Positions 3,001 through 64,000 are shown, counted from the stretch's first letter. The stretch is DNA of 64,000 bases from Blasia pusilla (GCA_050084515.1 CM114271.1:24676001-24740000); one strand, 5' to 3'. Translations and numbers: made by a program. Notes: a model not told the origin generated them from the letters alone.

Positions 3001-3064
3001 AGTTGCATAGCAATTTTGGAAAACTCTAGGATATTCACTTCTTGTGCATCTCTTAAAGCAGAAA

Positions 3065-42700: not shown

Positions 42701-45161
42701 AACCAATCCATGCAATGAGGTCTACAACTCAATCTTCTCAGATACGCAACTTTACTACGAGAATATTGGCGAGCTTTTGCTACTTTGGATTTCTTGAGAG
42801 TTGCAGTTTGTTTGTTATGATTCCTTCATGACCTTGGAGTAGACTCTTGAGTCTGTTTCTTTGCCATCAACTAAGAATGAACTTGGTATAGCTAGATAGA
42901 TAAGAGTAGGCTTATGTCGGACTCGTATAACCTATTGTTGTTATCCGAGTTGACACAAGGACCAAAGAGAATTTGGTGCAATAGAGGTCCATTGGATAGT
43001 TGGGACCGCTAGGCGCATGACACATGGTATCAGAGGTAATCCTTGGTGAGCAAGAACTTGGGGTTGTGGGAGCAACCGGACGCTTGGGGAAAACCCAAGG
43101 TAGCAGCGAGGCCCATACGCTCGGGGAGAGATGCAAGAAACACGGAGGAGATCTGAGTGTGGGGGCTTGAAGATGGCGACCAAGGGAGATGAACCACGGA
43201 AACGCGGAATGAAGTGACCCAAACCGAGAGACGAATTGATGTTGGATCGGGAGCCGGTGGAAGAGACTCCGACTCCTGAGGTGCCGAACACCATACATGA
43301 GGGTGTCCTAAACACAGACCCTACCGTGGGGGCAACGGCTCCAAACTCAAGTGAACTGGAATTCCATGTCCAAATGATGGACTATATGAAGATGATGACA
43401 AAGCGAGTGTTCCTGCAAAGCAAGCGGATTGTAGAGCTTGAGTCGGACCAAGCTTTGAGTTCTAGAAAAAAACTCTACAAGATGAACCTGCCCACGCCAT
43501 TCATTGGAGGGGGGCGAGATCGCCCCACTCCAGGTAAAAGATTTCCTTACGGAAATGGAATACTACTTTGAGGCGCAGAGGGCATCGGGGTAGGAGAAGG
43601 TGGCACTAGCGGTCACCTTACTAAATGATCATGCACTACAGTGGTGGACATCTCAACGAGAAAAACATCTAGCCGGTGGTTCACCTCTGAGCTGGGAGGA
43701 GTTCAAGATGCTCATTGGTGACCTAACCAAGCCGGAGTACAAAGAAATCCGCGATAAGATATAGCTCGTGCAACTGCGGCATACTAGGTCCCTCGACGCT
43801 TATGTGAGGGAGTTCAGCGCGAAGTTGAATTCCATTCCTAAGATAGATGAGACATCTCATATAGCAATCTTCATCGGTGGACTCAAACTGAGTGCGAAGA
43901 AGGCCTTGTATAGAATGTCGGAGTTGCCAAACACCTGCGTGGAGCTTTTGAGGATGGCGGATCGGATTGGGGATGATGAGGTCCAAACACCGGAGTCCTT
44001 TGAGACAAATTTTGTTTCCAAGATGTTGAAAAACAAAGGGGCACCCAAGAGAGTCTGGAGTGGAGTTGATCGGGACCAAGGAGATTCTCTCAACCCGGTG
44101 GCAAAGCGACAGGAATGCCATGCTAAGCTGAAGGGAGTGCAACATCAAAAGTCAGGAAATGACAAGGTGGTATGCTAAAACTATGGCAAACCAGAGCACA
44201 TGCCAAAGGGATGCTCCAAATATAAGGTTAGTAATGGGAGTATGATTGCGTTAGCTACTAAGCACTTGTGGACGGGAGGTCCAGAGACCTCCCATCAGGT
44301 CATGAAGAGGATATCCGACTTGGTGTACCTAAGATCCAAGATTGTTGATCTCAATGTGATGTTTCCCGTGAATACAGGTGCTTCACACTCCTTCCTAAGC
44401 CCTAGAATCGTGAAAGAGTTGGTTTTTTCAACCTCTAAGGCGGACTAGCCCATCCGAGTAGGCTTTGTTGGAGGCCTGTCTCATCGAACTTCTGAGTTGG
44501 TGTTGGGTTTGACGATAGGATGCGGTATTCGAGTTGAAGTAGAATTTCACAGTGTGGGAGATGGATGGCATTGATGGAGTCATCGGGAACACATTCCTAG
44601 ATGCATATGAGGTGGAACTGAGACAAAAGGCCATTGAGGTTGAGCATCTTAGTGAAAGGCAAACGATTGCAGGTGAGATTGGTTCTTGAGATGCTCATGA
44701 GAAAAAAGTTGGTGAATGCCATTACGAGGAGGAGTCAGACCGAGTTGGAGGATGGATTTCTTTGCTTAACGAGACAAGTGGAGGACATCACAAGTGAGAA
44801 GCATAGAGATTAGGATGCGACTTCGAGGGGAATCCCAAGGCTGCTACAAAGAGTAGTCAAGGAGTTTGGTGATGTCTTGACGGAGGACCTTCCGAACGAG
44901 TTGCCACCACATACAAAAATCGATCATAAGATAGAAGCCATTACCGGATCTCAATAACCTTCTGAGGCCCCATACAGATTGAATCAGGAGGAGCTTGCTG
45001 AGTTGAAAAAGCATGTAAGTGAGCTCTTAGAGAAGGGCTACATTAGAACTAGCAAGTCACCATATGGAGCGGTTGTTCTCTTTGTGAAGAAGAAGGATGG
45101 AAATATAAGACTCTTTGTGAATGAGGCGCGGTAAGAGGAGAGGAAGAGAGGAGCGAGGAGA

Positions 45162-48100
45162 TATTGAAGATTGATTTAATGTCAAACTCATGAGACACAT
45201 GAATTGCTACATTTGGTACTCACACGAAGTAGGGAAGCTTAATCTTGGTTAGTCACTTAAGCGCCATTATCTTAACTAGGGTTAGTTAATCACAGTTCGT
45301 CTAACTGGAGACTATGCTTAAGATTAGGGTTAGGGTTGCTTGTGTATACCCTCTATAATGGATAAGGGACTAACCTTCATTCATTCTCTCATTGCAAAAT
45401 TTTGTTGTCCATGGTGGTGTGCAAGTGTGAGAACCATTTGCCACCACTTATGCTTCTTTAGCAGTTTTCTACATCCTATCATAGCTCGCTTTTCTCATAG
45501 TGGGTGTAGATTTTACGTGGAGCTTTGACGATGATAAAACTTTGGAGGTGTTTTTAAGGGCTTTCCCGATTGATTTAGCCATTTGTTTCCGCATCGGTTA
45601 GATAAAATCCAAAGGTTGGTTCTAATTGTCTTGTAGAGCTCATTGAGAGCTTCCAACACATTTAAAATCTAAGCTCATGCAGTAGCAATTTCAATGTAGG
45701 AAAGTGCAATTAGTGAAGAAAAGTTCTCTACATAAATATATATAAGGTAGATAAGCATAATTACAATATTTGGAAGTTTTGCATGAAACAATTTCTCATG
45801 GATCAAGAACTATGGGAGCTTGTCACAGGTGATGAGGCCAAGACAGAAGGTCACTCAACAAACTTGAATGTTCGCGCTTGGAACAAACGCACAAGACAAG
45901 TAATCCATTACATAATAATAACTATCGATTCGCCAATAATATGTCACATTCAAGATGTTGATATTCGGAAGGAGACATGGGATGCATTAGAAAAGTTGTT
46001 CCATACATCTACAAAGGCCATAAAGCTTCAATTGAAATAGCAATTGAATGAAGTGAGGAAAGGATTGGAGAGCATCGATGATTATATTTTGAGTATCAGA
46101 TAAATTATTGATAAGTTGAATAGCATTGAAGTGACAGTAGAAGATGATGATCTGATTTTGTTTACTCTTCAAGGCCTTCCAAAGGATTACAAGTCCTTTG
46201 AGACTTCTATCTCTGTCAGAGAGAAGTATCAAACTTTTCAAGAGTTAGTCTCACTGTTAATCAGTGAAGAGTTACGTCGAGTAGGCATCAGTAGCTCGTT
46301 TAGTCTTCAAGAGAGTGTCCTATTTACATGTTATGGATCAAACAGAGGCAGGAGTTGTGGCAGAAGCTTCCGTGGTCGTGGTGGATATAAAAAATATCGA
46401 GGAAGAGGCACTCAATATAATGTCACTCAATCAACTACGAATCAGTACCAAACACAATCACAAGGTGGTGATGGTGGAAATCGTTGGGGTCGAGGTCAAC
46501 AACATAGGGTCCATGGATCTTACAATTACTGTGGGATAAAATATCATTGTGCAAAGTTTTTCTTCAAGAATAAGGAAAATATGAGAACATGAGCCTTACA
46601 TCAACAAAACTATGTGGAGCAACAACAACAACGGCACTACCAAGAACAAAAACATTCACAAACTGAGCATATCTTGGTCATGACTCATCATATGGGAGCA
46701 ATGGTCAAGAAAGATTCGACACCAGATACATTGACTCTAGTGCATCAAATCACATCACCTCATAAGCTAAATGGTTCAATAGTTTGGAGCCGGTGAAAGA
46801 TCCTGCAATTGTGTTGATAAGAGATGACATTGAGCATCATATCACGCATATCGATAAAGTTCCAGTAGCATCAGATGGTCTTTGTGGTCTTGGAATTATT
46901 CTCTATCTTCCTACCATTGCAAGAAACTTGATCTCTACATGATAGATAGTATAGCAAGGTTATCAAGTGAAGTTTAACACAAATGGTTGTTTCATTAAAA
47001 CAATGGATGATCAGACTACGATAGCCAAAGGAACTAGATCTGGAAGAATGTTCAATTTAGATATTTCTATGCCAGACATTCAAACAGCAATGTATGGTCA
47101 AAGAAGCCAACAAGTCACATATTTAAATATGTGGCATAAGAGAATGGAAGATATGAATCTTTAAAGATTACAAAGTCCTTCATCATCTAATCTAGTAATA
47201 GGACTTCCTAAATAAGCAAGTCCTGCTACGTTAGAGGTATGTCCTCCTTGCCAATTTGGAAAATAAACTAGATTTCCATTTCCAAAACAAAGTAGAAGAG
47301 CATTCAAAATATTGGAGTTGATTCACATTAATGTGTGGACAACATCACAACATAGCCTTAATGGTTGCCAATACTTCATTTCATTTATTGATGACTTATC
47401 TAGATATATATGTGTATACTTTATGAAAGCCAAGTTAGAAGTATTCTCAATATTTCAAACATTAAGAGTTCTAGTAGAGAAGCAGACTATAGAGAATATA
47501 TTATGAAATTGTGTTCAGATGGAGGAGGAGAGTATCTTGCAATAGAGTTTGATGATTACTTACATCATAATGACATCCAATGTCGAGTACTTGCCGTTAC
47601 ACTCCACAACAAAATGGAGTGGCTGAGAGAAAGAATCGGCATATTGTTGAGACAGCACGAGCTATGGTGAATGAGAACATACCTAAGGTGTATTGGGTTG
47701 AGGCTATAGTGTGTGCAGTCTTCTTGATCAACCAAACTCCAACAAAAAAATTCATGATAAGACTCCATTCTAAGTTCTTCACATGAAGTAAACGTGGTTT
47801 TTCTTTCATGAAAGTATTTGGTTGTAATTGTTTTGCTCATGTTCCTTCTGAAAGATGTAAAAAATTAGACCCCAAAATTTGAAAGATGAATATTCATCGG
47901 CTACGCTGATGGAACTAAGGGGTATAAGTGCTATATTCCATCATCTAGGAAGCTTATTATTAATCGCGATGTTGTCTTTGATGAGCTAAAGTCATGGTAT
48001 GATACATTTGAGCCTATTCCACCTCTAAACTCGTATGTTTTTTTTTTTTTTGGGGGGGAGATGACTGTAAACCAATTGACAATGCCTTCAAATTCCCCAA

Positions 48101-50139
48101 GTACAAGTGTAGGATTAGGAGAGGTCATAGATTCGTCAGTTAAATCTGTAAGTCCACGGAGGAGAAGAGTACATATTCAATCTGTTGACTCTAGTCAGAG
48201 CTCAAGTCAGGTGTTAGAGGTATCTACCTCTGAACAAAAACTTCGTAGATCAAGTAGAGTCACATATCATGTTCAGAGATTCATATATATATATATATGA
48301 AGGTTTTCTTACGATACATCATGCATATATGATGACTACCCTTCAAGACCATAAGCCGAGTTATTTTAAAGAAGCTGCAAGTAAAGTCGAATGGATTGAA
48401 GCTATGAAGGAAGAGCTTGCTGCATTAAAACATCAACACAATTGGGAGTTTACAAAGTCAAGCGCAATCAAGATGGTATAGTTAATAGATATAAAGCGGG
48501 ATTGGTGGCTAAGGGCTATGCACAAAAATATGGCATTGACTATGGGGAAACTTTTAGCCTTATTGCAAAGATGGCGACTACAATAAAAGTGGTTGCAGTT
48601 GTAGTAAGTAAGAAATGGAGATTACATCACATAGACGTCAAGAATTCTTTCTTGAACGCAGATCTATATGAGGAGGCATATATGACTCAACCACCTAGAT
48701 ATGAGCATCCCAAGTTTTCATTTCGCGTACGTATGTAGGTTGAAGAAAGCTCTATACAAGCTCAGACAAGCTCTTAGAGCCTTAGTATGGCAAGATTACA
48801 TTTATCGTACAAGAGTTGGGTTTTAGGGTATGTGATTATGACTCCTCGTTATATGTCTTGAGAGGACAAGATCATAAGATTATCATTGTGCTGTATGTTG
48901 ATGACCTCTTGATTACTGGGAGTACTAAGGATATGGTACAACAAGTCAAGCTAAAATTATAGGCAAAATTTTATATGAAAGACTTGGGAGAACTCAAATA
49001 CTTCTTTGGTGTTGAGTTTATCAAGGTTGGAGAGACCATGTGGTTACTACAACGATAATATGCTCTTCATATGCTTTCAAAATATGATATGACGGCTTGT
49101 AAGCCAATCTCTACACGGTTGGACCAGAGTGTGAAGCTAAGAGTGGATGAAGGAGAGTTGCTTGCACATTCTAATATGTATAGACGCATGGTTGAAAGTT
49201 TGATCTATCTAACTATAACACGGCCAGATTTGAGCTATGCAGTTGGCCTAGTTAGCCAATTAATGCAAGCACCTCGAAAACCTCATATTGATGCTTTAAG
49301 GAGGATTATGCGATATGTGAAATTATTTATTCAATTCGAGCTTCAATTTGAACCTTCTCCGAGTTAACAATTACATGGATTCACATATGCTGATTGGGCA
49401 TGAAGCGTGTCTGATCGACACTCCACATCTGCTTATTCACTTACTCTGGGAAGCGCCGTTATAAGTTGGGCTTCAAAGAAGCAACCTACAGTGGCTTATT
49501 CTCAACAAAGGCTGAATACACAAGAGCAATCAATGGAGCATGTGAGACGGTGTGGCTTCATCAATTCCTTGTTGAGATTTGTGGTAGTAAATTAGGACCT
49601 ATATGTAGACAATATTAATAACATCAAACTTGCTAATAATCCAGTGTTGAGGTGCACTATCATTTTATCAGAGAGAAAGTGCTTGCAAGAGAAATTGATC
49701 TTGTGTATAAAGGTACAGATCAGCAAATTTCTTACATCTTTAGAAAGGCATTGTCTAGAGATAAGTTTGAGATGTTTAGAAACGATTGCGGCTTGTTAGA
49801 GATATCGATATGAGCTTGAGGGGGAGTATTGAAGATTGAGTTACAGTCAAACTCATGAGACACATGAACTCCTACATTTGGTATTCATACGAAGTAGCGA
49901 AGCTTAATATCGGTTAGTGAGTTAAGCGCGATTATCTTAACTATGATTAGTTAATCATAGTTAATCTAACTAGAGACTATGGTTAAGATTAGGGTTAGGG
50001 TTGCTTGTACATACCCTATATAATGGAGAAGGGGACTAGCCTCTACTCATTCTCTCGTTGCAAAATTTTGGTCTCCATGGTGGTGTGTGAATGTGAGAGC
50101 CGTTTTCCACCAGTTATGCTTCTTTAGCATTTTTCTACA
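45162..50139 (+). mobile_element. Full-length degenerate Ty1/Copia retrotransposon
   Basis: LTRs at 45162-45473 and 49827-50139 (TA...CA), degenerate PBS TCCTATCATAGC, PPT GAGGGGGAG and TSD GGAGA/AGAGA. Order is gag, then integrase (DGGGEY, TPQQNGVAERKNR), then RT (LVAKGYAQ, LYVDD), then RNase H. Confidence 0.93.
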
Positions 50140-50530
50140 AGAGAGAGGAGAGAGGAAACTACCTTCATCCCAAAGAGATACATTTGGTTGAAGAGAGCTT
50201 CATGTGGTTTGAAGAGAGTTTCCGTTGGGTTGAAGAGAGGAAGTTTTTTTGGGGAATATTTTTGCAATTTTGTTCTCTATGCTTAGTCACTCCCACAGAT
50301 TGGCTTGTTCTCTTCCATATTCTGGCAACTCGTCGGAATCCGACGGGTTGCAACTTGCACAAACTAAAAAAAAACTGAAAAATTCATTGGAATCACTAAT
50401 GTGGAACAAATCACTTTTTCCATACAAGGTATGAAAAACACTCATCATTTATCCATAGCTGATAAGGGTACAAGCTCATAGTGAACATTTTGGCACTTCA
50501 GGGTACAATCAAAGACCTCATTCTGCATCC

Positions 50531-51900
50531 TCAAAGTGGTTTGTTTAAAATACTTCGCACTTCTTTGAGAAACAAAATTGGTTGGTGGATTCCTACGCCT
50601 ACCTCCGACTCTCTTAAACAACAAGCAACACATAGTAAATGTGCTTACAAGGGAAATACCTTTTCCCACTTGTCTCTCTTTGGACAAAGTCATCACAAGA
50701 ACATGTGGGGAAAGTAACAGATATGTACCACATACATCCCTATCACACTTGAATTCAAAGTGTTGTTCCTGATCCAATACATCCTTCCTATTCCATTGCT
50801 ACTATGAATGTCTTTTGTGGCGATAATTTTCATGTTTGCATCCCGAGCTTATGCGATTCGCTGTGCTCTCTCCATTGTTCGCCTACACATTCTATTTCTA
50901 TTCACCCCATTTATAGGCTCGAACAGAAATAATGGATTGAGATCATCCACCTTCTCAACATACATGTTGATATCAATCCTGGGTTAAATTCAGAATACAA
51001 AGGTCTCTGTAATGTGAATATGCTCCAAAACTCCGTCCATCTATGAGTTTGAAAATCAAGACTTATAAGATTTTCCACTTTGTCAGGGGTGGAATTGGTT
51101 CCTGCAGCAATGGGCCAAATCATGGGAATATTCCCTAGAGCTCCAATGGTAGTCGGATAAGACTTTCGAAGAGTGCATGATTCATTTGGGCATAAGATGT
51201 ACTTCAATTGATCCTCGGTTCTCGTAAAATGATTAAAGGTTTCCAGCCCCCATAAGCCTAGCAGTGGTTGTCTTATTCTTACATAGTTCTTATTCAGGAA
51301 AGTGCCACATGCTCTCCTAATGCCACCGATCCTGCCTTGCAAGTAGGTATACCTCGAGGGTTGCTTCGAGAAATATGCCACCGCTTGAGGTTGCAATCAA
51401 CCTCAACGATCAGACTCTTAAGTGGGAAGTTCCAGCAAAAGAGGGATTTTCAAATAAAACATTCATTGATTTTGCAGAAGGTACTTCAACTCAAATTGGG
51501 GAGCAGTCCTGTGTCTTTGAATACATGAGCGGGATTATTTCATCATCCAAATCAATCACTGGATTCTTTCCTCGATGCACACGGTTGACTTTCCTGAAGT
51601 CAAATTACTTATCAGGTCTCCAACAGTCTCGTTCAGACTTCTTTACTACCATCTCTATGGGACATTTCGAAACACGCCCACGAATGTCCTTACCAATGTA
51701 AACGTCTTTCTAAAGAGGAGTTTGAGCTACGCACCAATTGAAAGCTTCCACATACAATTTCTCATCCCCAGATCTAACAGCGGCTCTAACATAGAGCTCG
51801 TAAATTGAAGGGTCCTTTCCCTTGGTTACGCCTTTTGTGAGGAAGATGTGGAAGCCTGCAGATTATAGCATTGCTCTTGCCTAGTCTTGTTGGCATGCCT
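50531..51900 (-). pseudogene. SWIM zinc-finger protein pseudogene (MEKK1/ZSWIM2-like SWIM)
   Basis: Frameshift-joined translation QRIA.AR...YVVHICYFPTCSCDDFVQ...PCKHIYYVL...IHQPIL.LKEVRSIL gives CxC...CxH at about 50620-50740. The 5' boundary is approximate. Confidence 0.72.
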
Positions 51901-52058
51901 CAACATATATATTTTTTGACATGTTTATGATGACCTAAAGGAGGAATGAACACTCTCGACTCCGCTTATGTTGGGGCATAGGGCATTTTTGTGAATGTTA
52001 AGTCCCTCCACGGGAAAACTTATCAATTGATGGAGGGAACGCCTAAGTGTTGAATGAT

Positions 52059-53017
52059 TGCAACCCGTCACAATCTGACGGGTTGTGAGAAGCATTGAGA
52101 TGAAAACAACCAACCCGTCGATTGAACCATCGCCGACTGAGTGGACTAGCCAGAAAGGAATATTCGGAAATCATGATTAATGACTAGTGGGAAAGGATTT
52201 GCCGGGCTTCCTTCAACCTATGGGAGCCTGACGGTTTGGAAGGTAGACTCATGGGGGACTCCAACCCGTTGGAGTCCGATAGGTTGGAAACCCTAATGAA
52301 GCATGTCGACCGATAAAACGCACTTCGACGAGTTCAATTGAGTTTGGGTGGGACGATCCGACCCATCCGATTCCATCCTATCATACTCCATGGGAAAGAT
52401 CTACTAGAGGTCCTTCAACCCCTCAAAGTCTGACGGATTGCAAAATGAACAAACTCAAAATGGCGGTCCCTCCCTGGTCCTAGCCCGCGATAACCCATCA
52501 CACTCCCACGGCTTGTACCAGTTAGGCAGCTTGGATTTCGTGCAACTCGTCGGAGTCCGATGGTTGCACAAATCAGTTTGAATGGTCCCCGTGCATCCCG
52601 TCGGACTCCGATGGGATGCACGGGACCTAGGCTGGATGGACCCCATGCACCCCGTCATGGTCCAAAGGGTCACAGGAACCAAGCAGGATCAATGGTCCCC
52701 GTGCAACCTGTCAGACTTCAATGGGTTGCATAGGACCTAGGTTGGATGGACCCCACGCAACCCGAAGTGGTCCGACGGGTTGCAAGAACAGGGCACGATC
52801 AATGGTCCCGTGCAACCCATGGGAGTTCGAAGGGTTGCACGTGACCTAGGCTGGATGGACCCCGAGCAACCCGTCGCCCGTCGGGGTCCAAAGGGGTGCA
52901 AGAATTGGGCAGGATGGACCCCGTGCAACCCGTTGGAGTATAATGGGTTGTAGGTAGAATCCTGGGCATATCTCCCATGCATTGGAGTTGCAACCCATCG
53001 CGCTCCAACAGGCTGCA
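52059..53017. repeat. Palindrome array 1 (~15 copies), between the divergent genes
   Basis: Consensus TGCAACCCGTCGGAnTCCGACGGGTTGCA, for example at 52541, 52592, 52702, 52756, 52811 and 52924. The core has a ~55-bp period with two alternating spacer types. Confidence 0.92.
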
Positions 53018-54588
53018 GGTAGCTCACGCGGAACATGCACCGTAATGGTCCACCATTGTACAACCGGTCCCCTGTCGTACACCAACGGTCCGCCGTCGCA
53101 CCAACGGTCGAGTCCAACGGCTCCGGAAGTACATAAGGACCAGTTTCGAGGCTTCTCACTTTTCTATTCTACAATTTTCCGCGTTGTTTTAAACTCCCGT
53201 GTTAATACAACTACCAAAACTTGCTTTCTATTTACTCGAACATTTTGACGGTTGGTGGTGACGGTTTGAATTGAAGCGATTCTTTTCAGAGTTAATGAAG
53301 ATTTAGGTAAGAACCCCTCGTGAAGCATTTGATTGTTGGCTTATTTTAGGATGACTCGAAAAGATTCCCAAGCCAGCAAGGTCGTGAGCTTCTTTCCCAA
53401 GCCCGACAGAACTCCGTCTTTTGGTACGCGACGCACGGCCGCAAATGTTTGGCGAGAGGAAATCGAGGAGCGCGAGCGAGAAACCGAGATGAGGAAGCAG
53501 GAAATGTTGGAGAAACTAGCTTTGGAGAAGGTCGCAAAGCAAGCGGAGAAGAGAGAAGTGAAATTGCTTGCGGATGCGGAGAAGGCCGAGAAGAAATGCA
53601 TGGAGGCGGAGATCAAGCAGAATAAGAGCTAGGACGCCGGCTTCCCGAAAGCCAAAATTGCAAAAGCCAGGAAGGAAAGGGCATTGGTTGTAGAAGAAGA
53701 ACATGCCCAACAACCCACCGAGAGTGTGGGAATGGAGGATGTCTCATCCATGAGGTCGAGTGGTCCAATGCACGAGACCAATACCAAGGAGCTTCTAGAG
53801 ATCAACAAGGAAGCTGTTAGAACCCCGAGTGTCAAGATAATGGAGATCTCGTAAGGAGAAGGAGGAGAGTCTTCTACATCTCAAAACCATGTTGAAGAAT
53901 TCGTCCTCTTTGCAATTGAAGAGTTTCCAGTAGACTTGCCGGATGAGGCTCCATAGGAGCTCGTTGGACTTGACACTGACCCACTTTTCGAGCGGGTAAG
54001 AATTATTCAATAGTTCTCTCTACACTGCATTACTTCCAGTTGTTCTGAAAATTGGAATTGACAGTGGTAACATTCGCGGAGGTGTTGAAGCAGGAGATAC
54101 TGGTGGATGGCCGGAATGTCCCGAGGATTCTTCTCTACCAACTCTAAACGATGGAATACATTTGACAAATCCAATCGGAGAAAGACATTGACAAGTTGAA
54201 GCAGTCATTGACAACAACGTCATACGTTGACTTCCCACCTTTCTATCTCCGACCGTAGGTTGAGCATGGAACCCAAGCTTTGGTTATGGAGGAAGAATTG
54301 GAGAGTCTAGATGCTTTTTGGAGGTTGAGGGACGTTGAGTTCCGCAAGGCAGTAGCAACTCAATACAAGTGGATGCAAAACTTGTACTTCTTCATCTAGG
54401 ATGACAACCACCAATTCATGGCACGGTCGTAGTTTGCAGCAGAGCGACCAAACTCCCTTGAGGCTCACTTTTGCGTGAGGGCGGTGGTCCTCCATCTCGA
54501 CTCAAATCATATGGCTAAGGTGGAGATGGCTATGCTCTCCATGAACACGTAAGCATCCTCAACAAATTTCCCCAAATAAGAAGCGGTT

Positions 54589-55397
54589 TCAAGCCGTCAG
54601 ACTTCGACAGGTTGGTTCTTAGTAGTAATCATTAACGATAGCAGCCACCCGTCAGAAGGCGACTGGTTGCGATAGGAACAACTTGCTCCCGTATTTGCAA
54701 ATCGTCAGACTCTGACGGATTTATTTTGGCTCTCTATTGAGTTTCCTGGAAACCCGTCGGAGTCCGACGGGTTGCACAATCTCGAGTGTAGCCATCCAAG
54801 TAGGATAGGCCATATAACCCATCAGACTCCGACGGGTTGCATGATCTTTATGGAATGAGTCTTGGTTGGGGTGGATGTGCAACCTTTCAGTCTCCGACGG
54901 GTTGCAAAGGCATGCAAAGCCAGACCATTCAAACCATGGCCTTTCTTACGGCACATGCAACATGTTGGAGTCCGACGGGTTGCAAACCACTCACAACAGG
55001 GCCTTTCTTACCGCATATGCAACCCGTCGTACTCCCACGGGCTGTAGGGCCAATCAAACTCGGCTCTCGAAACTACAGTTCGTGCAATCCGTCGAACCCC
55101 AACAGGTTGGAAGAGGAGGGACCTCTTGCAACCCATCGGACTCTATCGAAGTGCAAGAGAAAAAACTTGCCTTAGAATCCTCAACCACATGTAAATATAA
55201 TACCCGGTGTGGGTGGCTTTGCAACCCCTCGGTTTTTGACAGATTGAATTTTTGAATTTAGGGGCCTGGAGGTGCAACCCATTGGAGTCCAACAGGTTGC
55301 TACCCAACCTAGATTAACGCGGATGCAACCCGTCGGTTTCCGACCGATTGCACCGAGGAAGCTTTTGGAGCAACTGTCAAACTTCGACGGGTTGCAA
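54589..55397. repeat. Palindrome array 2 (~14 copies), in an intron of the methyltransferase gene
   Basis: Same consensus, for example at 54750, 54878, 54956, 55273 and 55324; spacers are variable. Confidence 0.92.
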
Positions 55398-57310
55398 ACA
55401 AGTGCCATTTTGTTCGTCTACTTCCAATCCCTCAGAAACCGACAATTTTATTGTTGTAAGTGTTCTTACTTCTCATTGATGTTTCCAACATCCTGTCGGA
55501 AGGGAATGTTACCCATCATTGGATCGAGGAATGCAACCAAGTGAGGAAGGTTCTTACAACGTACCCGTCGTAATACAAAGGATTCCTTGGAGAGGATTTG
55601 GTGGATGAGATGGTCGCAAAAGGAGCACAAATTAAAAAAATACTTGGGCCAACACATTCATTTCCCAAGATGCATTTGTTACGATTCTCTGTTGGCCAAA
55701 AATACAACCGGCAAAAAGAAGCGCGACACTCGAGTTGGAGCAGAGAGGGAATGTTTTGGATTCTTAGAGAGCGAAGTTCATTAAGGCTGTTGTGTCGGCG
55801 GCGATCATCTACCTCAAGGTTGAGGACGGTGATGCATCGGTTTATCGCCATCCTCAACCCCGAGCTCGGACGTGACTTTTACAAAGAGTTGAAGGCCATA
55901 ATCAAGCGACAACAAAGGAGGGACAAGGATCCTCGTGGACGGATTGTAGAGAACGTGTCATTGGATAGAGCTCACTTGTTCGCCCTCTCAAGGATTTCGG
56001 AATTTAGGCAGATCCAATTGATGAAGATCAGTCTAGTGGGAACAGAGGCATAGAACAAATCGGCACACCATCCCCCTGGGGTGTCGGACCTAGTCATTTC
56101 CCAGTGGCTACGAGAATGGTCCTTCTGGAATGCCTTGCGCTTACAAGGAAAGTCGATGATTGAGTGCCTTCAAGGCGACATGCAGAGAATTCAGCCTATT
56201 TCAGAGGAGACTAGCCTCGATTCGGCGGAGGAGTACAAATTGTGGTTGAATCACATCCGGGATAAGCCGGCAAAGAACCCCAAGTTCAAGACGATGTTCA
56301 AGAGCGATATTTTGCCGGAGGGAGATCTCGATGAGGAGATTGGCGACCCAAAGAAACGAGACTTTGAAAAAAAGAAGAAGGAGCTTCAAGATCAAGCCGC
56401 CGATTCATCCCGCCAACGAGCTGCACAGAGGATGGTGATCAAATTTTTGCCCTCCTGTGTGAACGTAGGAAGATGGAGGAAGTTCCCGGCGGCGCTCAAG
56501 CTATGGGCAAATACTCCGCATGGTGAAGGATTCTTCATGTACCACGTGGAGATGGCACTCGACATGAGCCCTTGGGAAGTGCTGATCAAACTGTCCAATC
56601 TGCTTGGACTTCAACGATCATCGAGGACGGCAACGGGAGGCCCCGAAAATGAATCTTATGGATTGCGACGTCACGGAGACCCCAACAAGCAGGCACCCCA
56701 CTCGCGAGAAGAAAAAGAGGGAGATAACGGGTTCCTCCAAGGGGGGGGGGAACAAGAATGTAGTCTAAACTCCCTCATTTTTGGGGAAGCACAGGGATGG
56801 AGCATCGAAAATTACTATCGCTACTGGAAGAACTAGAGAAGTTCTCCACATAGGAGTCCACGATGGCTTGGAGAAGCTGACACTCTTGGGATGAAAGCTT
56901 TTGCAAAACGGCCATGCCTCATGGACCGTCAATGGGGTACCTGAGGAGGTTGCACTTGACCTCCTCATTGTAGATCTACCGTCGGGGCTTAGATTGTGGG
57001 CAGAGAACCCATGCGACACAGCCCCAGATTGGAACATTCCCTTCACATATGACCAAATCGAGTTGATGTCCTCCTTTGCCAATGCGTATCAAAGTGACAC
57101 GTGATGTTTCCTTGTTCTCACCCGTGGTAGTGAGGATGAGCTCTTAAACTTGCAATGCGCGAAGCGATCATTGAAGTGGCAAACAGTGCAGTCTTGGGAA
57201 GTGAAGAACAACTACCGCTAAGGTCGACTACAAACCAAGTCTTGGTAAGTTCGAAAAAATTATGCAACTTTTTTCTTTTTTTTTCTCGCATCCTGGTTTT
57301 CATTTTTTCT

Positions 57311-57648
57311 TGCAACCCATCGAACGAGTTACACATTGATCCTAACAAGCCTTGTGCAACCTGTCGGAGTCCGACGGGTTGCAGACGGACTATGCGCACA
57401 ACCCGTTGGACTTTGGTGGATTGCAGCACCCACTTGTCGGGTTCTTGGGTGTGTCTAGCAATCCGTCGGATTTTGACGGGTTGCTGATAGGCCCTGTGAC
57501 TGCCTGTGCAACCCGTTGGAACCCAACGGGTTGCATATCCACAATTGGTGAGTAACCCGTCTGAGTCCTACAGTTCGGATCCCCCACTAAACGCAAATTG
57601 CCTCGGTGACATCTGACATTTGCAACCCGTCGGATTCCGTCAGGTTGC
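57311..57648. repeat. Palindrome array 3 (~7 copies), in the intron splitting the methyltransferase domain
   Basis: Same consensus, for example at 57355, 57507 and 57621, between the donor at 57245 and the acceptor near 57709. Confidence 0.9.
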
Positions 57649-58952
57649 TCCTAGAAGACTTCTTCCTCCCATTGATTCTTAGCTGATTTGTACGGTTCTA
57701 TTCTTTGCAGATCGAATACTATTACGTCTATTTTTTGTCAAACCAGAGCACGGTTTCGAGGTTTTTGAGGTACAGGATCCTGTTGATCCAGGTTCAGATG
57801 GATTCACTCTTACCAACCTCTTTAATTCATCCCCATAAATCGTCGTTGAGGAAGGAATGATTAGAGGGAGAGGAAAATCACCCGCACTCATGCATACCCT
57901 CATGGAGCTCTGTTCGAGGCCAGGTGATTTGGTGCTCGATTTGGTGGGTTTTTCTCGGGCAACTGTTAGAGTTGCTTGGCAGAGTGGCCAAAATATTCTC
58001 TGCCTTGAGTCTCGAAACACCTTGTTTGCACTTTTATCGGAGGCAAAGTCTGACTACGAGAGGGATATGGGCGTTTACAAGTCGCCTGCACGGATCAATG
58101 AACCTGCACTGGAGCCAGTGGTTGTGACGCCATCCTCACTACCAGTGATCCTAAAAATCGGAAGGGCAAGGCCACCGGTGATTCTAGAGGAGTTGTCAGA
58201 TGATGATGAGTGAGTGCATGTGCCTTGGATTTGAAGCGTTTTGGAGTTGACATGTGTTGGTTCTTGGGAAGTAGGAAATATTGATATCAATGGGTTTCCA
58301 TTTGCAGAAGCTTCAAAATCAGTTGTCGAAGTAGGCGTTGGGACTCTTCTTGTGTCACATGGGACCGATACGGGGTACCTAGGGGGACAAGGGTCTCGGA
58401 TCCTCCTTCCTTCTCTGTTCCAATCAACAATCACGTAGAAGAGCCTCTGACTAGTCTGAGAAGTCTCTTGTCGAGGAACCGGCAAGAGTTAGGAACATTT
58501 GTTAAGATGACGAGGCTGAAGAGATCATGGAATATATTTTATTGTTAAGGAAATCAAATGTAAATGACCGATTTGCAAATGGTTTTAAATAAAGTGGTTT
58601 TTTTAACGCAACCAATTCTCTTCATGCTTATGGTCTGATATTATTTTTTATCACATTTCAAAATTGAGGTGAGGCTTTTGTGCTTTTGTAATGTGTCGAA
58701 AATCGACGGGTTGCCTGCTGTCTTTTCACATTTACATTTTTCCTGGAAAATATCTTTTCCCATTTATAGTTTTCATGATGTTCTTTCTCTGTACCGAGAC
58801 CAATTTATTCTCTTCGTTTCTTTTGGTCTTGTATACGTGCTTTCTTGGACTCCTATCTTTGGTTTGAGGCGTTGGTAACTCATCTTATTCCAAAAGGTTG
58901 AAAACCACTCCAACCGAAGAGTAGAATCAATTTTTGCAGAATATCCAGTCTT

Positions 58953-59115
58953 ACAACCCGTCGGAGTCCAATGAGTTGCAAGATAATCAAAATGAGAGAC
59001 AATACAATCTTGCAACCCGTCGGATTTTGACGTGTTGCAAGAGGTGCAACCTGTCGGCTTCCGACAGGTTGCAAGGGATGCAACCTAAACCTGATGCAAC
59101 CTGTTGCAGGTTGCA
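58953..59115. repeat. Palindrome array 4 (~4 copies), downstream of the methyltransferase gene
   Basis: Same consensus at about 58953, 59011, 59045 and 59095. A lone copy also lies at 50325-50352 near the other end of the element. Confidence 0.85.
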
Positions 59116-62100
59116 ATAAGTTGTGGAGAATCCCATCTGATGGAATAGTATTGATCAGATGGGATATTTCATGCTTTTTTACATGAAGAGACCTCCTACC
59201 CAACATGGTGAGGATGGGAGTCCTACATTAACAGTCCATAATTTCAACCATATCTTTTGAGAAGTTAAAACGTAAAGGGCACATGAGTCTATTGACACCA
59301 TAGACAGAGTCTTTATTAGAACCTTTCATTGAGATCATTTTTTTTGTACTCATCAAATTATCTACCGATGGTCCTCCAACAACAATATCCCTCAATCGGC
59401 CTTACTATAGAGCTGGCTTAGACAAGCAATGTGAAGAAAATTAGGCTCACATGGAGAGTGTTGGAAGGATGTTTGCAGTGGTTCTTCTGATGTCATCTTG
59501 TTTTTCCAAGCCTGGAAGAAGAAGGTTAGTTTAGGCCCGAATGTGGTCTACTTGCTACTCTTCTCTAAAGATTTTTGAATTTGAAACCATCTTTTTTTTT
59601 CAAAAATGTCAAAAAGTTTTAAAGAAAGGAGGCGGATTCAACCTCTTTTTTTTTAATAGAAGAGAGACTCCCCTCTCTTCCTCTCCTCTCTTACTCTCTC
59701 CTGCTATAATACTAGCCCCCTCTTTGGAATATTGTGAGCTGAATAAGGTAACGGTGAGAAATAGTTACCCTTTTCCAAGGATTGATGACCTCTTCGATAG
59801 ACTATCAGGGGAAAACTACTTCGATAAAATTCTTTTAAAATCAAAATATTACCATATTCGGATTGCCGAAGTGGATGTGGAAAAGACTACGTGTAGAACG
59901 AGATATGGCTTGTTCAAGTTTGTGGTGATGCCCTTCGGTCTATGTAATGCGCCTCTAGCATTCACCACATTGATGGACTCCATTTTCCACGAGGAGACAC
60001 ATGAGTATGTGATCATCTACATAGATAATATACTCATCTATTCGAAGTCACTAGAGGAGCACACTCGACACTTGAGAGCGATGTTGTTGAAACTAAGGGC
60101 GAACAAGTTGTACGTGAAGATGGAAAAGAGTGAGTTCGGGTTGGGCAAGATCAAGTTCTTGGGTCATGTGGTTAGCAAAGATGGAGTTAGTCCAAATATG
60201 GACAAGGTGAAAGCCATCGTCGAGTGGAAACCGCCTTCCACAGTGAAGGGAATGAGGAGATTTATCAGCGCGGTGCCGTTCTACAGAACCTACGAAAGGA
60301 ATTTTTCGGGGTTTGTGAGATCTCTCACATCTTGGATTGCAAAGTATGCTAACACAACCTGGATCCAAGAAGTGAATGACGCGTTCAATCGAGTCAAGGA
60401 GATCCTATTGCAGGAGGTAGTGTTGAAGCTGTTGGAGTTCGACAAGCCGTTCAAGGTGCATACTGATGCTAGTGATTTTGCAATTGCAAGAATGTTGGTA
60501 TAGAAACGAAGACTTGTAGCGTACCAGAGTAAGAAGCTCAATAACACTAAGAGGAGATGGCCCACTCATGAGAAAGAGTTTTTCTTGTGGTCCATTGGTT
60601 GAGGAAGTGGCGTCACTATTTGGGACTTCACAGGATTTGAGTGTTCATCTAAAACGTATCACTCAAGTATTTTGAGACCGAGGATCGAGTGACACCGAAA
60701 CAACTGCGATGGCATGATACCTTGGCGTTGATGAATGTGGAACTGATCCACAAGCAAGGGAAGGATGATGTCATTCGAGATGTATTGAGTTGCAGGGATG
60801 AAGACATGCCATCGACAACACAGGTCTTGAGAGCAATGTTCCCTAAGGAAACAGATCTGGAAAGAAGGATTCGTGAGGGATACATGAAAGACATCCAGAC
60901 GAGTGAGTACCTAAGGAAGTTGAAGCAGGGTGAGAAGGTGGCCAACATAAATTTGAGGCAAGGTTTGCTAAGGTTCAAGCAGAGCAGGATCTATGTGGGC
61001 AAATGCAGATTGCGAACCAAGGTGTTAGTGGAATGTCATGACGGACCCTTGTCAGGACATAAAGGGGAAAAATTGACGTTGGCTGTTTTGGCTAAGAGGT
61101 TCTTCTTGCCCAACATGAGAGAGGATGTTGCTTAATATGTGAAGACCTGTGTGACCTGTCAGGCGAGCAGATTTTCTTATGGGAAGAAACAAGGCTTGCT
61201 ACAGCCTTTGCCAATTCTGGATGGACCCTTGTAGAGTGTGAGTATGGACTTCATAAAAATTATTCCAGAGTGTGAGGGATAAAACGCCATACTTATGATA
61301 GTTGATTGGTTTGGTAAGTTTGGGAGATTCGTGCCGATGGTGGATTAAGCGACGAGCTTACGACTTCTCGACTCTTCCTGGATAGTTGGTGGTGTGCGCA
61401 TGGGTTGCCTAGTTGCATTGTTTCAGATCAGGATCCAAACTTTACATGTGCCTTTTGGTAGCATTTGTTCAAGAGGTTCAAGACCAATCTGAGTTTTAGC
61501 ACGGCCTTCCATCTGTAGACAGATGGGCAGACGGAAAAGCTAAACTCCCTCGTGAAGCAGTTCTTAAGGAATTACACACAAGCAAGATTAAGCGAAGTGG
61601 CTGAGTATGTCCAAGTTCTCCTAGACCTCAACCAAGCATTCTGCAATTGGAGAATCTCAATTTCTCTTGGCTTATGGACGTGAGCTAGAAGAGCCCCTTG
61701 ACCTAGCCCTTTGAAGGGCACTACATCAGCACAGACTCGACAAGCGACGACAGAAGTTTTGTTAGCGGAGATGCGAGAATGGGAGGAGCGAGCAAGGAGA
61801 AACCTTTCAAAGTCTCAACCAAGGTCTGTGGAGCATGCTAACAAGAGCAAGCGCCAAGTGAGATTCCGAGCTAGGGAACAAGTGTGGTTCACTGTGAAGA
61901 ATCTCACTCTTCCGAAGGAGTTACCTCCGAAGCTATCTGCCAAGTATGCTCGATCCTATGTGATTAAGCAAACCCATTTGAGGACATGTATACCTTGGAG
62001 CTACCATAAGAGTTTAGGATACATCCCACTTTCCATCTGTCATTGTTGAAGAAGTATCTTCAAGATAATGAGCGTCTGAGCGCAAACAGACGTTGAGACC

Positions 62101-64000
62101 ACAACCAATAATTGTGAATGAAGAACCGGAGTTTGAGGTGGAGACCATTTTGCATTCGAGGCATAGGGCCAAAAAGTACAAGTACTTGGTCAAGTGGAAG
62201 GGCTACCATGTGAAAAAAGGGACTTGGATTGTGGAGGCAGACCTCGAACACGCGGAAGAGGTGTTGCAAGACTTCAAACGGTTGTAAGGGAAGCACATGC
62301 GTTAATTCACGGAGTAGCTAGGGACATGACTTGTGACCATAGGAAGCTTGGGCCAAAGGCCGTTGTAACTAGAGTAGGCTAGTGTTGCAATAAAGAAATG
62401 CATGAATTTGGAGATTCATTGCTTGTGTGGTTTGCAATTTGTCTTTGGTAGTGCATGGCAATGAGTAGTTCCTCATATGCTTAGGATGTAAGTCAAGATG
62501 ATAGACAAGGAGTATTTGAGGTGAGACCTTGTATTCATATAAGTACATAGAACATGGACAAGTGTTGAGTAACTAACACTTGGGTTTGCCCTAGCGTCGG
62601 CAAGGAAAATCACTTTTTCTTGGGGCTTGGGGTGATCTTACTCGTGAGTGCATGAGTGAACTTAGTGACGCGTCCAAGTCGAGTACAAGAGCGACCCAAA
62701 AGTAGTACGAATTGTGTATCGTGTAAACAGGCGAGATGTTTACGAGTTGTGAGCAAGAGAAGCCATAGGTAGCAAACTTAGTTAGCTTATTTGATAGGTT
62801 AGACCGGTTGAGAATCAGTCTACACTCTTCAAAGAGGAGATGCTAAATGATGCTAAGTGTTGCAAGCGATAACCTAAGACTTAAGCCAAAAGAGGAAGTG
62901 CGGGTTAGCTACCAGAACGCAATTCGATGTCAAGGGGTCGGCTTCCCCAAAATGACTTGACATTAAAAGGTTTGCGTTGATGAGGGCATCAACGCAAACC
63001 TCATAACCAAACGAGCACCAAGCGGAACATTTGAACTCTATCGGCTCATGCTAGGATGGTTTGCGCTTTGGAGTTAGTGAAACACAAGGGTGAGGCGCAA
63101 GTGTGGCGAGCATTTAAAATTTTTCATGCGTTTATGGTTGTGATTTAGGAAATCAAAACCAAACAAGGAACCCACACTTAAGAGAAGTTGAGTCTTGGAA
63201 GGAGACGTGGCCAAGGGGGGAGAACCGGACTTGGGATGCAACTAGCGTTTGGAGTTGTTGATTGTACTTTTGACCATAACTTTTAGTCCCAAGAAGCGTT
63301 TGGGACAACTAAGAAAGCGTTGGAAAGCTTATGCAAAGCTGGTTCCAATGCATTAAAGATATTGGCACATGCTTAAGCAAAAGCTAAGATATGGGCCAAA
63401 AAAATTTGTAGGGAGAGCTGATTGAGGGCCAAAAAGAGGGGTCCGAGTGCTCTTCTCCAAAGGTAGGGAGATTCCGAGAATCCCCAAAGTACTAGTAAGG
63501 AGGAAGGTCACGAAGGGTGCTTGGGACTCAAACCCCACTTTAGGCGCCGCGGGGCGACTCAAGGACACGGAATGGATCGAGGGTTTTGGCGAGTTGGGAT
63601 TTGAAACCCAAACCAAGTCCAGTAGAGTGGATTTCGGAGGTCCCTATTGGATTCCAACTCGCTACTCATATTGTTGAGTCTCGATTTGGGCTCTTGCGAG
63701 GTCCATTGGACAGTTGGGACGGCTACGCTCACGACAATCATGCCCAAGTTACTCTCCGAAGAGAGGTAATCCACACTCATTGGAAGAACAAGAAAGCCCA
63801 ATGCCATCCACTCAAGAGTAACAAGAGAAAACTTCAGAAATGAAGTTGAAGGTGATAAATTCCTGAAGGTCCCTTCACTTTATACACGAGGCTAATCCTA
63901 TCTTGTGCCACATGATTTCCTCTTAAGGCTTGGCCAATCCCATTTTGATAAAAGTTGATTACATGTTATCTTCTCCTAAAATATCCTCATAAACTCATTT

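Follow-up and report, generated by a model that had tools for sequence, protein, structure and literature searches.

A 29-bp palindrome in the non-coding parts of a decayed transposon-like element of Blasia pusilla: candidate target sites for an element-encoded protein

Within a 64-kb stretch of Blasia pusilla DNA (the window), a 29-bp palindrome, TGCAACCCGTCGGA-N-TCCGACGGGTTGCA, with 14-bp arms and a one-base centre, is present in 40 non-overlapping copies, all 40 of which lie in 50324-59073 (8.75 kb). The copies are found upstream of a plus-strand pseudogene, in its two intron-like gaps, and downstream of the gene (Table 1). The locus is a dead copy of a transposon-like element, with genes interrupted by stops and a frameshift and with sites that are decaying, and all findings on the locus come from this one decayed copy. 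The best-supported reading, held tentatively but quite possibly correct, is that the palindromes form arrays of target sites to which an element-encoded dimeric protein would bind; its support is the anatomy of the locus and analogy with known elements.

Table 1. Positions of the palindromes, gene remnants and intron-like gaps, counted from the first base of the window
Feature	Position	Strand	Remarks
Left singleton palindrome	50324-50352		2 mismatches to consensus
Decayed transposase-like gene remnant	50617-51950	-	SWIM zinc finger (C-x-C ... C-x-H) at 50617-50739
Array 1, 14 copies	52059-53017		upstream of plus-strand gene
Exon-like stretch 1	53340-54548	+	charged, low-complexity start; in-frame stops; without palindrome
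Intron-like gap 1	54549-55502	+	GT at 54549-54550, candidate AG at 55501-55502
Array 2, 14 copies	54588-55396		in intron-like gap 1; partly a 62-65-bp tandem repeat
Exon-like stretch 2	55503-57244	+	421-codon frame with one stop (55574-56836), then frame change; without palindrome
Intron-like gap 2	57245-57710	+	GT at 57245-57246, AG at 57709-57710
Array 3, 6 copies	57355-57649		in intron-like gap 2
Exon-like stretch 3	57711-58213	+	weak match to the end of N6/N4 DNA methylases in 57839-58213
3' flank, 5 copies	58687-59115		copies at 58687, 58874, 58952, 59011 and 59045

Distribution, boundaries and decay of the palindrome

The copies are the matches to the 29-mer with at most 10 mismatches in 28 positions, after removal of overlaps: 25 have 6 mismatches or fewer, 15 have 7-10, and the same scan finds none in the remaining ~55 kb of the window. 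At 3 mismatches or fewer, the full 29-mer gives 10 matches (0.00 expected from 100 shuffles), and the 14-nt half-site with 2 mismatches or fewer gives 37 (0.23 expected), every one in 50324-59073. The original prediction of about 40 copies, in four clusters plus singletons and absent from exons, is borne out: the layout is one of four local tandem arrays plus singletons, and the three exon-like stretches (the start of the second being approximate) contain none of the 40 copies and none of the 37 half-sites.

Array 1 is a tandem repeat with a unit of ~55 bp and a higher-order period of 110 bp, and tandem repeats are reported by TRF with periods of 110 (2.7 units, 52581-52873), 62 (1.9 units, 54924-55041) and 34 (2.2 units, 59011-59086). 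The left singleton is ~185 bp to the right of the end of a copia 3' LTR, and intron-like gap 2 also holds a lone half-site at 57311. In the 3' flank, the copies at 58687 and 58874 are isolated and weak, those at 59011 and 59045 are 34 bp apart, and truncated remnants follow at 59079-59115, beyond the last full copy.

The palindrome has sharp edges. Information content is 0.7-1.7 bits per column at positions 1-14 and 16-29, ~0.2 bits at the centre, and mostly below 0.25 bits in the flanks, reaching 0.3-0.4 at three columns beside the palindrome; blastn similarity between different arrays ends at 26-38 bp. Since conservation is limited to 14 + 14 bp and between-array similarity to 26-38 bp, the four arrays have the palindrome in common and not a longer unit. 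As the arrays are local tandem repeats, the spacers inside any one of them are related, whereas those of different arrays are unrelated, in agreement with the earlier description of a conserved repeat with variable spacers. The centre-to-centre spacings (n = 32, 34-93 bp) show weak phasing, with a best period of 10.4-10.6 bp in a scan of 5-20 bp (R = 0.33, P about 0.03-0.05), a P-value which is optimistic because the arrays have grown by duplication and the spacings are non-independent.

The symmetry of the sites is at the level expected by chance, contrary to the earlier hint that it is maintained. Among the 40 copies there are 13 symmetric double changes (12.6 ± 2.9 expected, P = 0.50), mirror identity holds in 374 of 560 cells (378 expected), and pairing cells amount to 76.6%, as in shuffles (76.6 ± 0.8); the covariation analysis proposed at the outset thus gives no covariation or pairing beyond shuffles. 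The 25 best copies have 9 symmetric double changes against 5.8 ± 2.0 expected, which is not significant (P = 0.096). The symmetric changes originally quoted at 57507 and 59045 are both real, but such changes are not in excess, and these two are CpG transitions, the commonest change among the copies. The lack of an excess of symmetry-preserving changes had been named beforehand as a point against the prediction, and no such excess is found.

The palindromes decay mostly by C>T/G>A changes, and 78 of their 160 CpGs survive. Non-CpG columns (positions 4, 5, 7 and 10) are off consensus in only 4-9 of 80 arms, compared with 20-23 of 80 for CpG and adjoining columns, and the two arms of the palindrome decay independently. 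This column pattern fits sites that would have been near-identical at insertion and have since decayed neutrally. Observed/expected CpG is 0.68-0.89 across the locus, compared with 0.48 in the neighbouring copia element and 0.34 in a cullin gene; the idea that the locus has decayed unusually heavily was dropped, as it is not strongly CpG-depleted overall.

Gene remnants, class and other copies of the element

The third exon-like stretch of the plus-strand pseudogene has a weak methylase-like match covering the part that includes the cofactor-binding motif. Pfam family PF01555 matches with E = 0.001 and 19.5 bits (below the gathering threshold of 26.7), M.RsrI (PDB 1eg2) with E = 0.002, and phrog_3008 (DNA methyltransferase) with E = 0.0012, all three on the same ~50 residues, which two PHROG methylase families match weakly. 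The region 56895-57245, where the N-terminal half with the catalytic motif is expected, has no family or PDB match, and alignment to M.RsrI shows that this copy has not retained the glycine-rich cofactor loop. No relatives of the methylase-like ORF were found by word search, no matches in the NCBIfam scan, and no DNA-binding domain in the plus-strand gene in scans of Pfam, PHROGs or NCBIfam. Used as protein queries, 56054-56836 and 55574-56836 have no homologue in the protein libraries searched, and two pseudogene queries of the ESM Atlas gave only sub-threshold, unnamed clusters. An exhaustive search of representatives returned two matches at E ~3e-4, both to internally repetitive proteins, which were taken as chance. 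AlphaFold2, run on a single sequence, gives the 260-residue ORF of exon-like stretch 2 a mean pLDDT of 38. A run of 10 G is located at 56741-56750, ~90 bases before the end of the 421-codon frame.

The element is not confined to this locus. Diverged paralogues of exon-like stretches 1 and 2 are present in at least nine same-species contigs, with 11-17% of letters different; parts of the window with little contig cover were left aside as evidence. Contigs of the same species also join palindromes by other spacers, of 5, 13, 21, 38 and 39 nt, so that occurrence of the motif elsewhere in the genome, raised beforehand as a point against the original prediction, is in part what is seen. The contig with the 5-nt spacer has a depth of 243, a hint of a satellite-like array that could exist without a protein. 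The exact 23-nt core of the palindrome was found in no stretch of the viral, metagenome and genome contig collections; 26 metagenome stretches matching a CpG-degenerate core have a single site each and no array, are about what chance would give by estimate, and were set aside as unrelated. A 13-nt piece of the half-site occurs in no paper in a full-text search (main texts, supplements aside), and 11-nt pieces occur in literature on unrelated topics, by chance as judged by listing. A literature search for palindromic arrays in Mutator-like elements gave one relevant paper (PMC10342631).

The gene on the left, described earlier as divergent, is probably a high-copy remnant of a Mutator-like transposase, since it carries a SWIM zinc finger: PF04434 scores 24.1 bits on 50617-50739 (cut-off 19.6, E = 2.6e-5), or 18.6 bits within the long minus-strand read-through, the frame of which has 13 stops in 327 codons. 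SWIM zinc fingers, a feature of the C-terminal end of Mutator transposases, also occur outside transposases, and are not proof on their own. A MULE catalytic domain (PF10551) was found neither in the three minus-strand read-through frames at E ≤5 nor in P0001. Summed same-species contig depth is 876-3087 on the left remnant and 4-112 further right, and contig homology of the remnant ends near 50616 and 51905-51954. The transposase remnant exceeds the arrays and the plus-strand gene 10-100-fold in contig abundance and may therefore be an unrelated nested fragment. A SWIM match above the Pfam cut-off, in a high-copy coding remnant adjoining array 1, favours the target-site reading; among the points against that reading are the lack of any sign of selection for symmetry, the lack of a DNA-binding domain in the scans, and the possible nesting of the remnant.

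The family is a moderately repeated, DNA-transposon-like plant element, probably of the Mutator kind. Mutator elements are marked by long terminal inverted repeats and a target-site duplication of 9-11 bp. A search of the flanks gave no convincing target-site duplication and, apart from the palindrome, no terminal inverted repeat to mark the ends of the element: only the palindrome itself matches in inverted orientation between them (33 nt, 88%), and the best direct repeat is 11 bp with one mismatch, in a locally repeated word. A scan for CACTA terminal repeats with a 13-nt consensus gave 39 matches with 3 mismatches or fewer (29.2 expected), all away from the edges of the region, and domain scans found no CACTA transposase domain. 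A 12-nt word at 50605-50616 resembling the maize En/Spm motif was rejected: it occurs once, and such matches number 4 against 4.0 expected.

Alternative explanations for the arrays

The main rival explanation, possible but rather unlikely, is that the arrays are functionless minisatellites, amplified by slippage or unequal exchange, surviving only outside coding sequence and read by no protein. Replication slippage and unequal exchange are favoured by palindromes, the arrays here are local tandem repeats that differ in unit length (55/110, 62-65 or 34 bp), the arms change independently of each other, and the depth-243 contig suggests satellite-like expansion elsewhere. Arabidopsis transposons, MuDR/VANDAL included, are described as rich in short repeats with diverse spacers (PMC10342631). 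However, amplification accounts for the number of copies within an array and not for the seeding of each array, and leaves unexplained why the same sharp-edged 29 bp stands in at least five separate places with unrelated neighbours and reappears between different spacers in other parts of the genome.

A role at the RNA level is improbable. Transcribed arrays would form hairpins, and 29-bp duplexes between copies, that feed small RNAs and RNA-directed DNA methylation or affect splicing. Gap 2 has a predicted fold of -169.6 kcal/mol (-126.8 ± 7.1 in shuffles, z = -6.0), in which palindrome copies pair with themselves and with one another, but a palindromic sequence folds in this way by construction; stems of 13-14 bp, taken singly, are generally too short for Dicer-like enzymes. 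The non-coding regions of VANDAL elements are reported as efficient targets of RNA-directed DNA methylation (PMC10398659), and the predominance of C>T/G>A changes, with about half of the CpGs (78 of 160) surviving, fits heavy cytosine methylation. Such a role would nevertheless be a consequence of the arrays rather than the reason for their conservation, and the RNA hairpins suggested at the outset find no backing in pairing or covariation, which do not exceed shuffles, or in Rfam, where no family reaches threshold (the best, MIR844, scoring 26.3 bits against a gathering score of 70).

It is very unlikely that the palindromes are targets marked or bound by the element's own methylase-like protein, which was another of the original suggestions. 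GA-N-TC is the site of some N6-adenine methylases in PF01555, the centre of the consensus reads GGA-N-TCC and thus includes GA-N-TC, and exon-like stretch 3 has its methylase-like stretch. This centre, the sole support for methylation targets, is intact in only 14 of 40 copies; 22 and 13 of 80 arms differ from the consensus at positions 13 and 14, respectively, columns that are no better kept than others, and the two-base coincidence has a chance of ~1 in 16. The domain match is itself below cut-off (19.5 against 26.7 bits) and spans only ~50 residues, with no methylase match in the N-terminal half and the cofactor loop lost. A bolder proposal is hardly less speculative: a Mutator-like transposon would have recruited the accessory gene as a methyltransferase-derived reader or writer (active or dead) of the GA-N-TC-centred, CpG-rich arrays, marking or shielding the element's non-coding DNA from host cytosine methylation, an anti-silencing system independent of VANC and built on a bacterial-type N6/N4 methylase fold. 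Scarcely credible is the idea that each palindrome inserted as a minimal MITE-like unit made of nothing but its two 14-bp terminal repeats, and that such units moved about inside the element. The palindrome does have the form of a perfect inverted repeat around a single central base, at many places with unrelated flanks. Yet spacing inside the tandem units is regular, the remaining ~55 kb and the exon-like parts are free of copies, and there is no target-site duplication (identical flanks in 0-4 of 40 copies, best P = 0.066, for lengths of 2-5 bp at three offsets against shuffled pairs).

Target sites for an element-encoded protein and comparison with known systems

The proposal that the palindromes are sites for a dimeric, element-encoded protein therefore survives from the original prediction in its anatomical and analogical part, and not in its evidence of selection from symmetry. 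The sites, their confinement and sharp edges, the growth of the arrays by tandem duplication, the pattern of decay and the multi-copy state are all observed, and it is from them and from the analogy that we infer that a protein binds the sites, which protein this would be and what its binding would do. The reader would be a transposase or an accessory regulator of the element family, probably dimeric and sequence-specific. The active ancestor would have had the same 29-bp site ahead of the gene, within two introns and also at the 3' end, and at each place the site would have been multiplied by tandem duplication together with its local neighbouring sequence; duplication of this kind explains why each array has its own spacer and only the palindrome is shared. 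Dense arrays could then recruit many dimers to the non-coding parts, leaving the coding sequence untouched, and the protein might act on the element's own copies as VANC (VANDAL) or TnpA (CACTA) do, to counter silencing, control transcription or take part in transposition.

Arrays of a private motif read by the element's own protein have so far been documented in detail for VANDAL (VANC) in Arabidopsis and for CACTA (TnpA), where they explain escape from silencing with little harm to the host and rapid change of specificity through repeat turnover. If the reading is true, this locus is a second, unrelated-looking case, set apart by the length and palindromic form of its site, by its accessory gene and by its plant lineage; it would point to a general strategy that evolved more than once, and would offer a new protein-site pair for targeted chromatin control. 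Should the arrays be inert minisatellites, this is repeat debris of an ordinary kind.

The parS/ParB-like arrays of plasmids and episomal viruses, the analogy first proposed, consist of tandem units, each with a palindromic site for the replicon's own dimeric protein. The tandem units here are alike in each having a palindromic site, but the locus is chromosomal, has spliceosomal-type gaps, lies inside nested retrotransposons, and has nothing that suggests an episome; scans of Pfam, PHROGs and NCBIfam found no ParB-like or other partition domain.

The short interrupted repeat cassettes (SIRCs) of Arabidopsis are 10-29-bp repeats with diverse spacers, found frequently in MuDR/VANDAL and Helitron elements and in many cases inside tandem repeats of these; they are described as having 2-8 repeats, and a minority contain palindromes, whose arms measure at most 4-9 bp (PMC10342631). 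The likeness is descriptive, in short repeats separated by diverse spacers, whereas the arrays here have up to 14 copies and 14-bp arms, and SIRC is a structural label without a mechanism.

In the maize En/Spm motif, inverted pairs bind best. CACTA (En/Spm) elements have a repeated, family-specific motif in direct and inverted orientation and an element-encoded DNA-binding protein that differs between families (PMC2613891; 10.64898/2026.08.24.746577), the subterminal motifs being bound by TnpA (PMC2613891). Reiterated direct and inverted copies are shared with the present locus, where the reader protein is putative. Unlike CACTA elements, the locus has no CACTA terminal repeat at or near its edges and no CACTA transposase domain, and its arrays are also in introns, kilobases from any possible end.

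VANC proteins, which have the domains DUF1985 and DUF287, target a short motif in fast-evolving tandem repeats of the non-coding parts of VANDAL elements, absent from exons (PMC5735166, with which PMC10398659 agrees on this anatomy); the motifs are non-palindromic and of 8-9 bases, YAGTATTAY and AGTTGTCC/AGTTGTAC (PMC5735166). The present motif, in contrast, is a CpG-rich palindrome of 29 bp. No VANC homologue was found, DUF1985 and DUF287 being absent from Pfam scans of the decayed plus-strand frames at E ≤0.1 and 1, and the accessory gene here has a weak methylase-like stretch and is without relatives in the protein libraries searched. The likeness is in the plan of the element: a Mutator-type transposase plus accessory genes in VANDAL and a probable Mutator-like remnant here, and, in both, tandem arrays of a motif that occupy introns, upstream or intergenic sequence and terminal non-coding regions, and no exons.

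Number and layout of the palindromic sites

The palindrome is a 29-bp site with the consensus TGCAACCCGTCGGA-N-TCCGACGGGTTGCA, in which two 14-bp arms (half-sites) flank a one-base centre. In a scan of the window, the full 29-mer was matched 10 times with up to three mismatches (0.00 expected) and the half-site 37 times with up to two (0.23 expected). Allowing up to 10 mismatches in 28 positions, there are 40 non-overlapping palindromes, of which 25 have six or fewer mismatches and 15 have seven to 10. All 40 lie within 50324–59073, and none is found in the remaining ~55 kb of the window. The repeated palindrome described in the original prediction is thus borne out by these counts.

A plus-strand stretch, 53340–58213, reads as a pseudogene in three exon-like parts, set apart by two gaps with GT...AG ends, which contain arrays 2 and 3. 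A 21-bp tandem repeat (3.2 copies, 50174–50239) lies between the LTR of a copia element and the first palindrome; by eye, the end words of its units look like a decayed outer half-site. Also by eye, an inverted repeat of 10 bp around a 12-nt loop (59132–59163), distinct from the palindromes, can be seen immediately to the right of their last remnants.

Coordinates of the palindromes and of neighbouring features in the window
Feature	Position	Strand	Remarks
Pectate lyase gene exons	17696–18626	-	host gene
Multi-exon cullin gene	26269–32771	-	host gene
Helitron Rep fragment	41268–41654	-	Helitron_like_N, E = 5e-17
Retrotransposon gag match, weak	43765–44175	+	E = 0.007
Copia element	45157–50139		gag, SH3-like domain, RVT_2; left of palindrome locus
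Single palindrome	50324		n = 1
Array 1	52059–53017		14 palindromes
Tandem repeat	52581–52873		period 110, 2.7 copies (Tandem Repeats Finder)
Pseudogene part 1	53340–54548	+	
Array 2	54588–55396		14 palindromes; inside first GT...AG gap of pseudogene
Tandem repeat	54924–55041		period 62, 1.9 copies (Tandem Repeats Finder)
Pseudogene part 2	~55503–57244	+	421-codon frame with one stop, then frame change
Array 3	57355–57649		6 palindromes; inside second GT...AG gap of pseudogene
Pseudogene part 3	57711–58213	+	
Last palindrome group	58687–59073		5 palindromes
Tandem repeat	59011–59086		period 34, 2.2 copies (Tandem Repeats Finder)
Truncated palindrome remnants	59079–59115		after last palindrome group
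Gypsy RT, RNase H, integrase	59535–61132	+	right of palindrome locus

The element, its neighbours and its relatives

The window is plant-like nuclear DNA; the CpG observed/expected ratio of the cullin region is very low (0.34). The helicase part was not detected in the ORFs around the Helitron Rep fragment, which has no evident link with the palindrome locus. The copia element sits in a GA-rich tract, and its LTRs (45157–45473 and 49823–50139) have 87% identity over 318 bp (blastn); within the 3′ LTR there is a telomere-like short run, GGTTAG ×3.7, at 49981–50002. Same-species contigs connect ~45150 straight to ~50141 at single-copy depth, and so represent an empty site or else a paralogue that lacks the copia insertion. 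The gag match on the left and the gypsy domains on the right are on the same strand, and a single old gypsy element may enclose both the copia element and the palindrome locus.

Between the first palindrome and array 1, the minus strand carries a heavily damaged remnant of coding sequence (50617–~51950), with 13 stops across the 327 codons of a single frame. Its last ORF matches the SWIM zinc finger (24.1 bits, cut-off 19.6), while profile scans of its frames did not detect the MULE domain. The SWIM finger, together with the high copy number, points to a Mutator-like transposase, of which this would be the decayed gene.

Domain signal in the plus-strand pseudogene is confined to ~50 residues that match the end of N6/N4 DNA methylases: 19.5 bits against PF01555 (below the cut-off of 26.7), E = 0.002 against M.RsrI and E = 0.0012 against phrog_3008. 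The presumed N-terminal half of this methylase-like protein had no match in family and PDB searches. For the large middle ORF, word-based protein searches gave no relatives and the ESM Atlas nothing above 0.9; HMMER, run against 1.84 billion representatives, gave two hits, rejected as chance matches to repetitive proteins, and a single-sequence structure prediction was unusable (pLDDT 38). Part 2 also contains a run of 10 G at 56741–56750, some 90 bases upstream of the end of its long reading frame; this run is a possible frameshift site.

Contigs of three DNA runs, from one organism, were aligned to 44001–64000 at ≥80% likeness. Two contigs, of 388 nt and 352 nt, each have one letter other than the window; such near-identity indicates that the runs are from the same species. 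Summed contig depth is 876–3087 over 50004–52004, 222–2790 over the other retroelement bins and 4–112 over 52005–59341, where single contigs have ~3–6. Among the best-supported matches listed, at least nine contigs have 11–17% other letters on the exon-like parts. Depth and diverged contigs together show that the plus-strand gene is a moderately repeated family, estimated from the depths at roughly 5–30 copies at ≥80% likeness. Several contigs, again among the matches listed, connect palindromes via stretches that the window does not contain (5, 13, 21, 38 or 39 nt); thus, palindrome arrays with other spacers exist elsewhere in the genome of this species. One such contig, with a 5-nt spacer, has a 34-bp unit like that at 59011–59086, at a depth of 243.

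The 23-nt palindrome core had no exact match in viral, metagenome and prokaryote collections, and no 13-nt piece of the half-site was found in the main texts of the papers searched. The 26 metagenome contigs that match a CpG-degenerate core have one isolated site each, and were treated as chance. Three unrelated metagenome contigs have one identical 29-mer, with six mismatches to the palindrome, as a single site each (L007:4190-4218, L008:4063-4091, L018:289-317); this is probably a conserved element of another organism.

Bounds, growth and decay of the palindromes

When the 40 palindromes are aligned with 25-nt flanks, information content is 0.7–1.7 bits per column at positions 1–14 and 16–29, 0.2 bits at the centre (G 15, C 13, T 7, A 5), and mostly <0.25 bits outside, with 0.3–0.4 bits at three columns just beyond the edge. 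Similarity between arrays consists of 26–38-bp matches only (blastn, region versus window), i.e., the palindrome itself: the 29 bp are all that the arrays have in common. Within array 1 there is a 277-bp match (75%, 110-bp offset), and within array 2 a 62-bp match (77%); an alignment of eight units from array 1 gives a unit of ~55 bp carrying its own conserved spacer. Since matches between arrays end at the palindrome and tandem units are found inside arrays, every array expanded locally through tandem duplication. Such growth is what inert, palindrome-seeded minisatellites would show, but they leave unexplained why one 29-bp sequence was seeded again and again, and we regard them as a possible, rather doubtful, explanation. 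Centre-to-centre distances (n = 32) range from 34 to 93 bp, and a scan of periods between 5 and 20 bp has its maximum at 10.4–10.6 bp (R = 0.33; P ~0.03 in the Rayleigh test and 0.05 in the jitter control). This hints weakly at helical phasing, and the hint loses further weight since units that arose by duplication do not count as independent.

The symmetry of the palindromes was compared with a null in which right arms were shuffled among copies. Mirrored cells are alike in 374 of 560 cases (378.2 ± 6.3 expected, P = 0.76), and symmetric double changes number 13 in the 40 palindromes (12.6 ± 2.9 expected, P = 0.50) and nine in the 25 best (5.8 ± 2.0 expected, P = 0.096). By pair counting, 76.6% of cells are paired, against 76.6 ± 0.8 in shuffles (260 of 500 equal or higher), and covariation is 0.180 against 0.172 ± 0.013. 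The original prediction had taken some symmetric changes as a hint of maintained symmetry; the data do not support this, and the two examples quoted are both CpG transitions. A role as RNA or small RNA draws on the strong fold of the second intron-like gap (z = -6.0), but covariation does not exceed that of the shuffles and the role is more readily seen as a side effect; no Rfam family is near its threshold, and such a role is unlikely.

The palindromes depart from the consensus 219 times, by C>T in 57 cases and by G>A in 58. Changes cluster where each arm has its two CpGs and at the adjacent G (20–23 of 80 arms per column), whereas positions 4, 5, 7 and 10 are changed in just 4–9 of 80 arms; 78 of 160 CpGs are kept. 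The pattern is that of palindromes which were once near-identical and whose arms have since decayed independently, we infer under cytosine methylation. As the element copy in the window is dead, this decay speaks neither for nor against a past function. Methylase targets are suggested by the GA-N-TC centre of the palindrome, but this centre is kept in only 14 of 40 copies and the methylase domain match is sub-threshold, making them a very improbable explanation; mobile mini-palindromes, which lack target duplications, are the least credible of all.

A binding-site reading and known systems

The sharp 29-bp bounds, near-identity before decay, seeding at several places, growth in place and avoidance of coding sequence are most simply accounted for by a binding site. 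The palindrome would serve in cis as the site of a sequence-specific protein that the element family supplies and that acts as a dimer; the same 29 bp would have been seeded at no fewer than five distinct non-coding positions within a single repeated element, amid unrelated neighbouring sequence, and the copies multiplied there by tandem duplication. The binding sites first proposed thus remain the best account of the bounded palindrome, its seeding and its avoidance of coding parts; they are unproven, and the argument from symmetry falls away. By analogy, a VANC- or TnpA-like target array of a dimeric protein, in a probable Mutator-like element, is our tentative preference, held at nearly even confidence. 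The SWIM finger is the one feature suggesting MULE membership, and searches for terminal repeats and target duplications left the element ends undefined.

VANC, the anti-silencing protein of Arabidopsis VANDAL transposons, targets a 9-base motif in fast-changing tandem repeats, which lie in introns of both VANC21 and VANB21 and, for VANA21, upstream of the gene (PMC5735166; PMC10398659), and has the domains DUF1985 and DUF287 (PMC5735166). Pfam scans of the plus-strand frames did not find these domains, nor did a scan with a CACTA terminal consensus find CACTA ends at the locus. The locus may be likened to the VANC and TnpA systems in its way of working, rather than counted as a member of either. 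The TnpA protein of CACTA elements acts comparably on reiterated motifs, which are subterminal in that case (PMC2613891; 10.64898/2026.08.24.746577). VANDAL/VANC offers the closest documented anatomy to the palindrome arrays.
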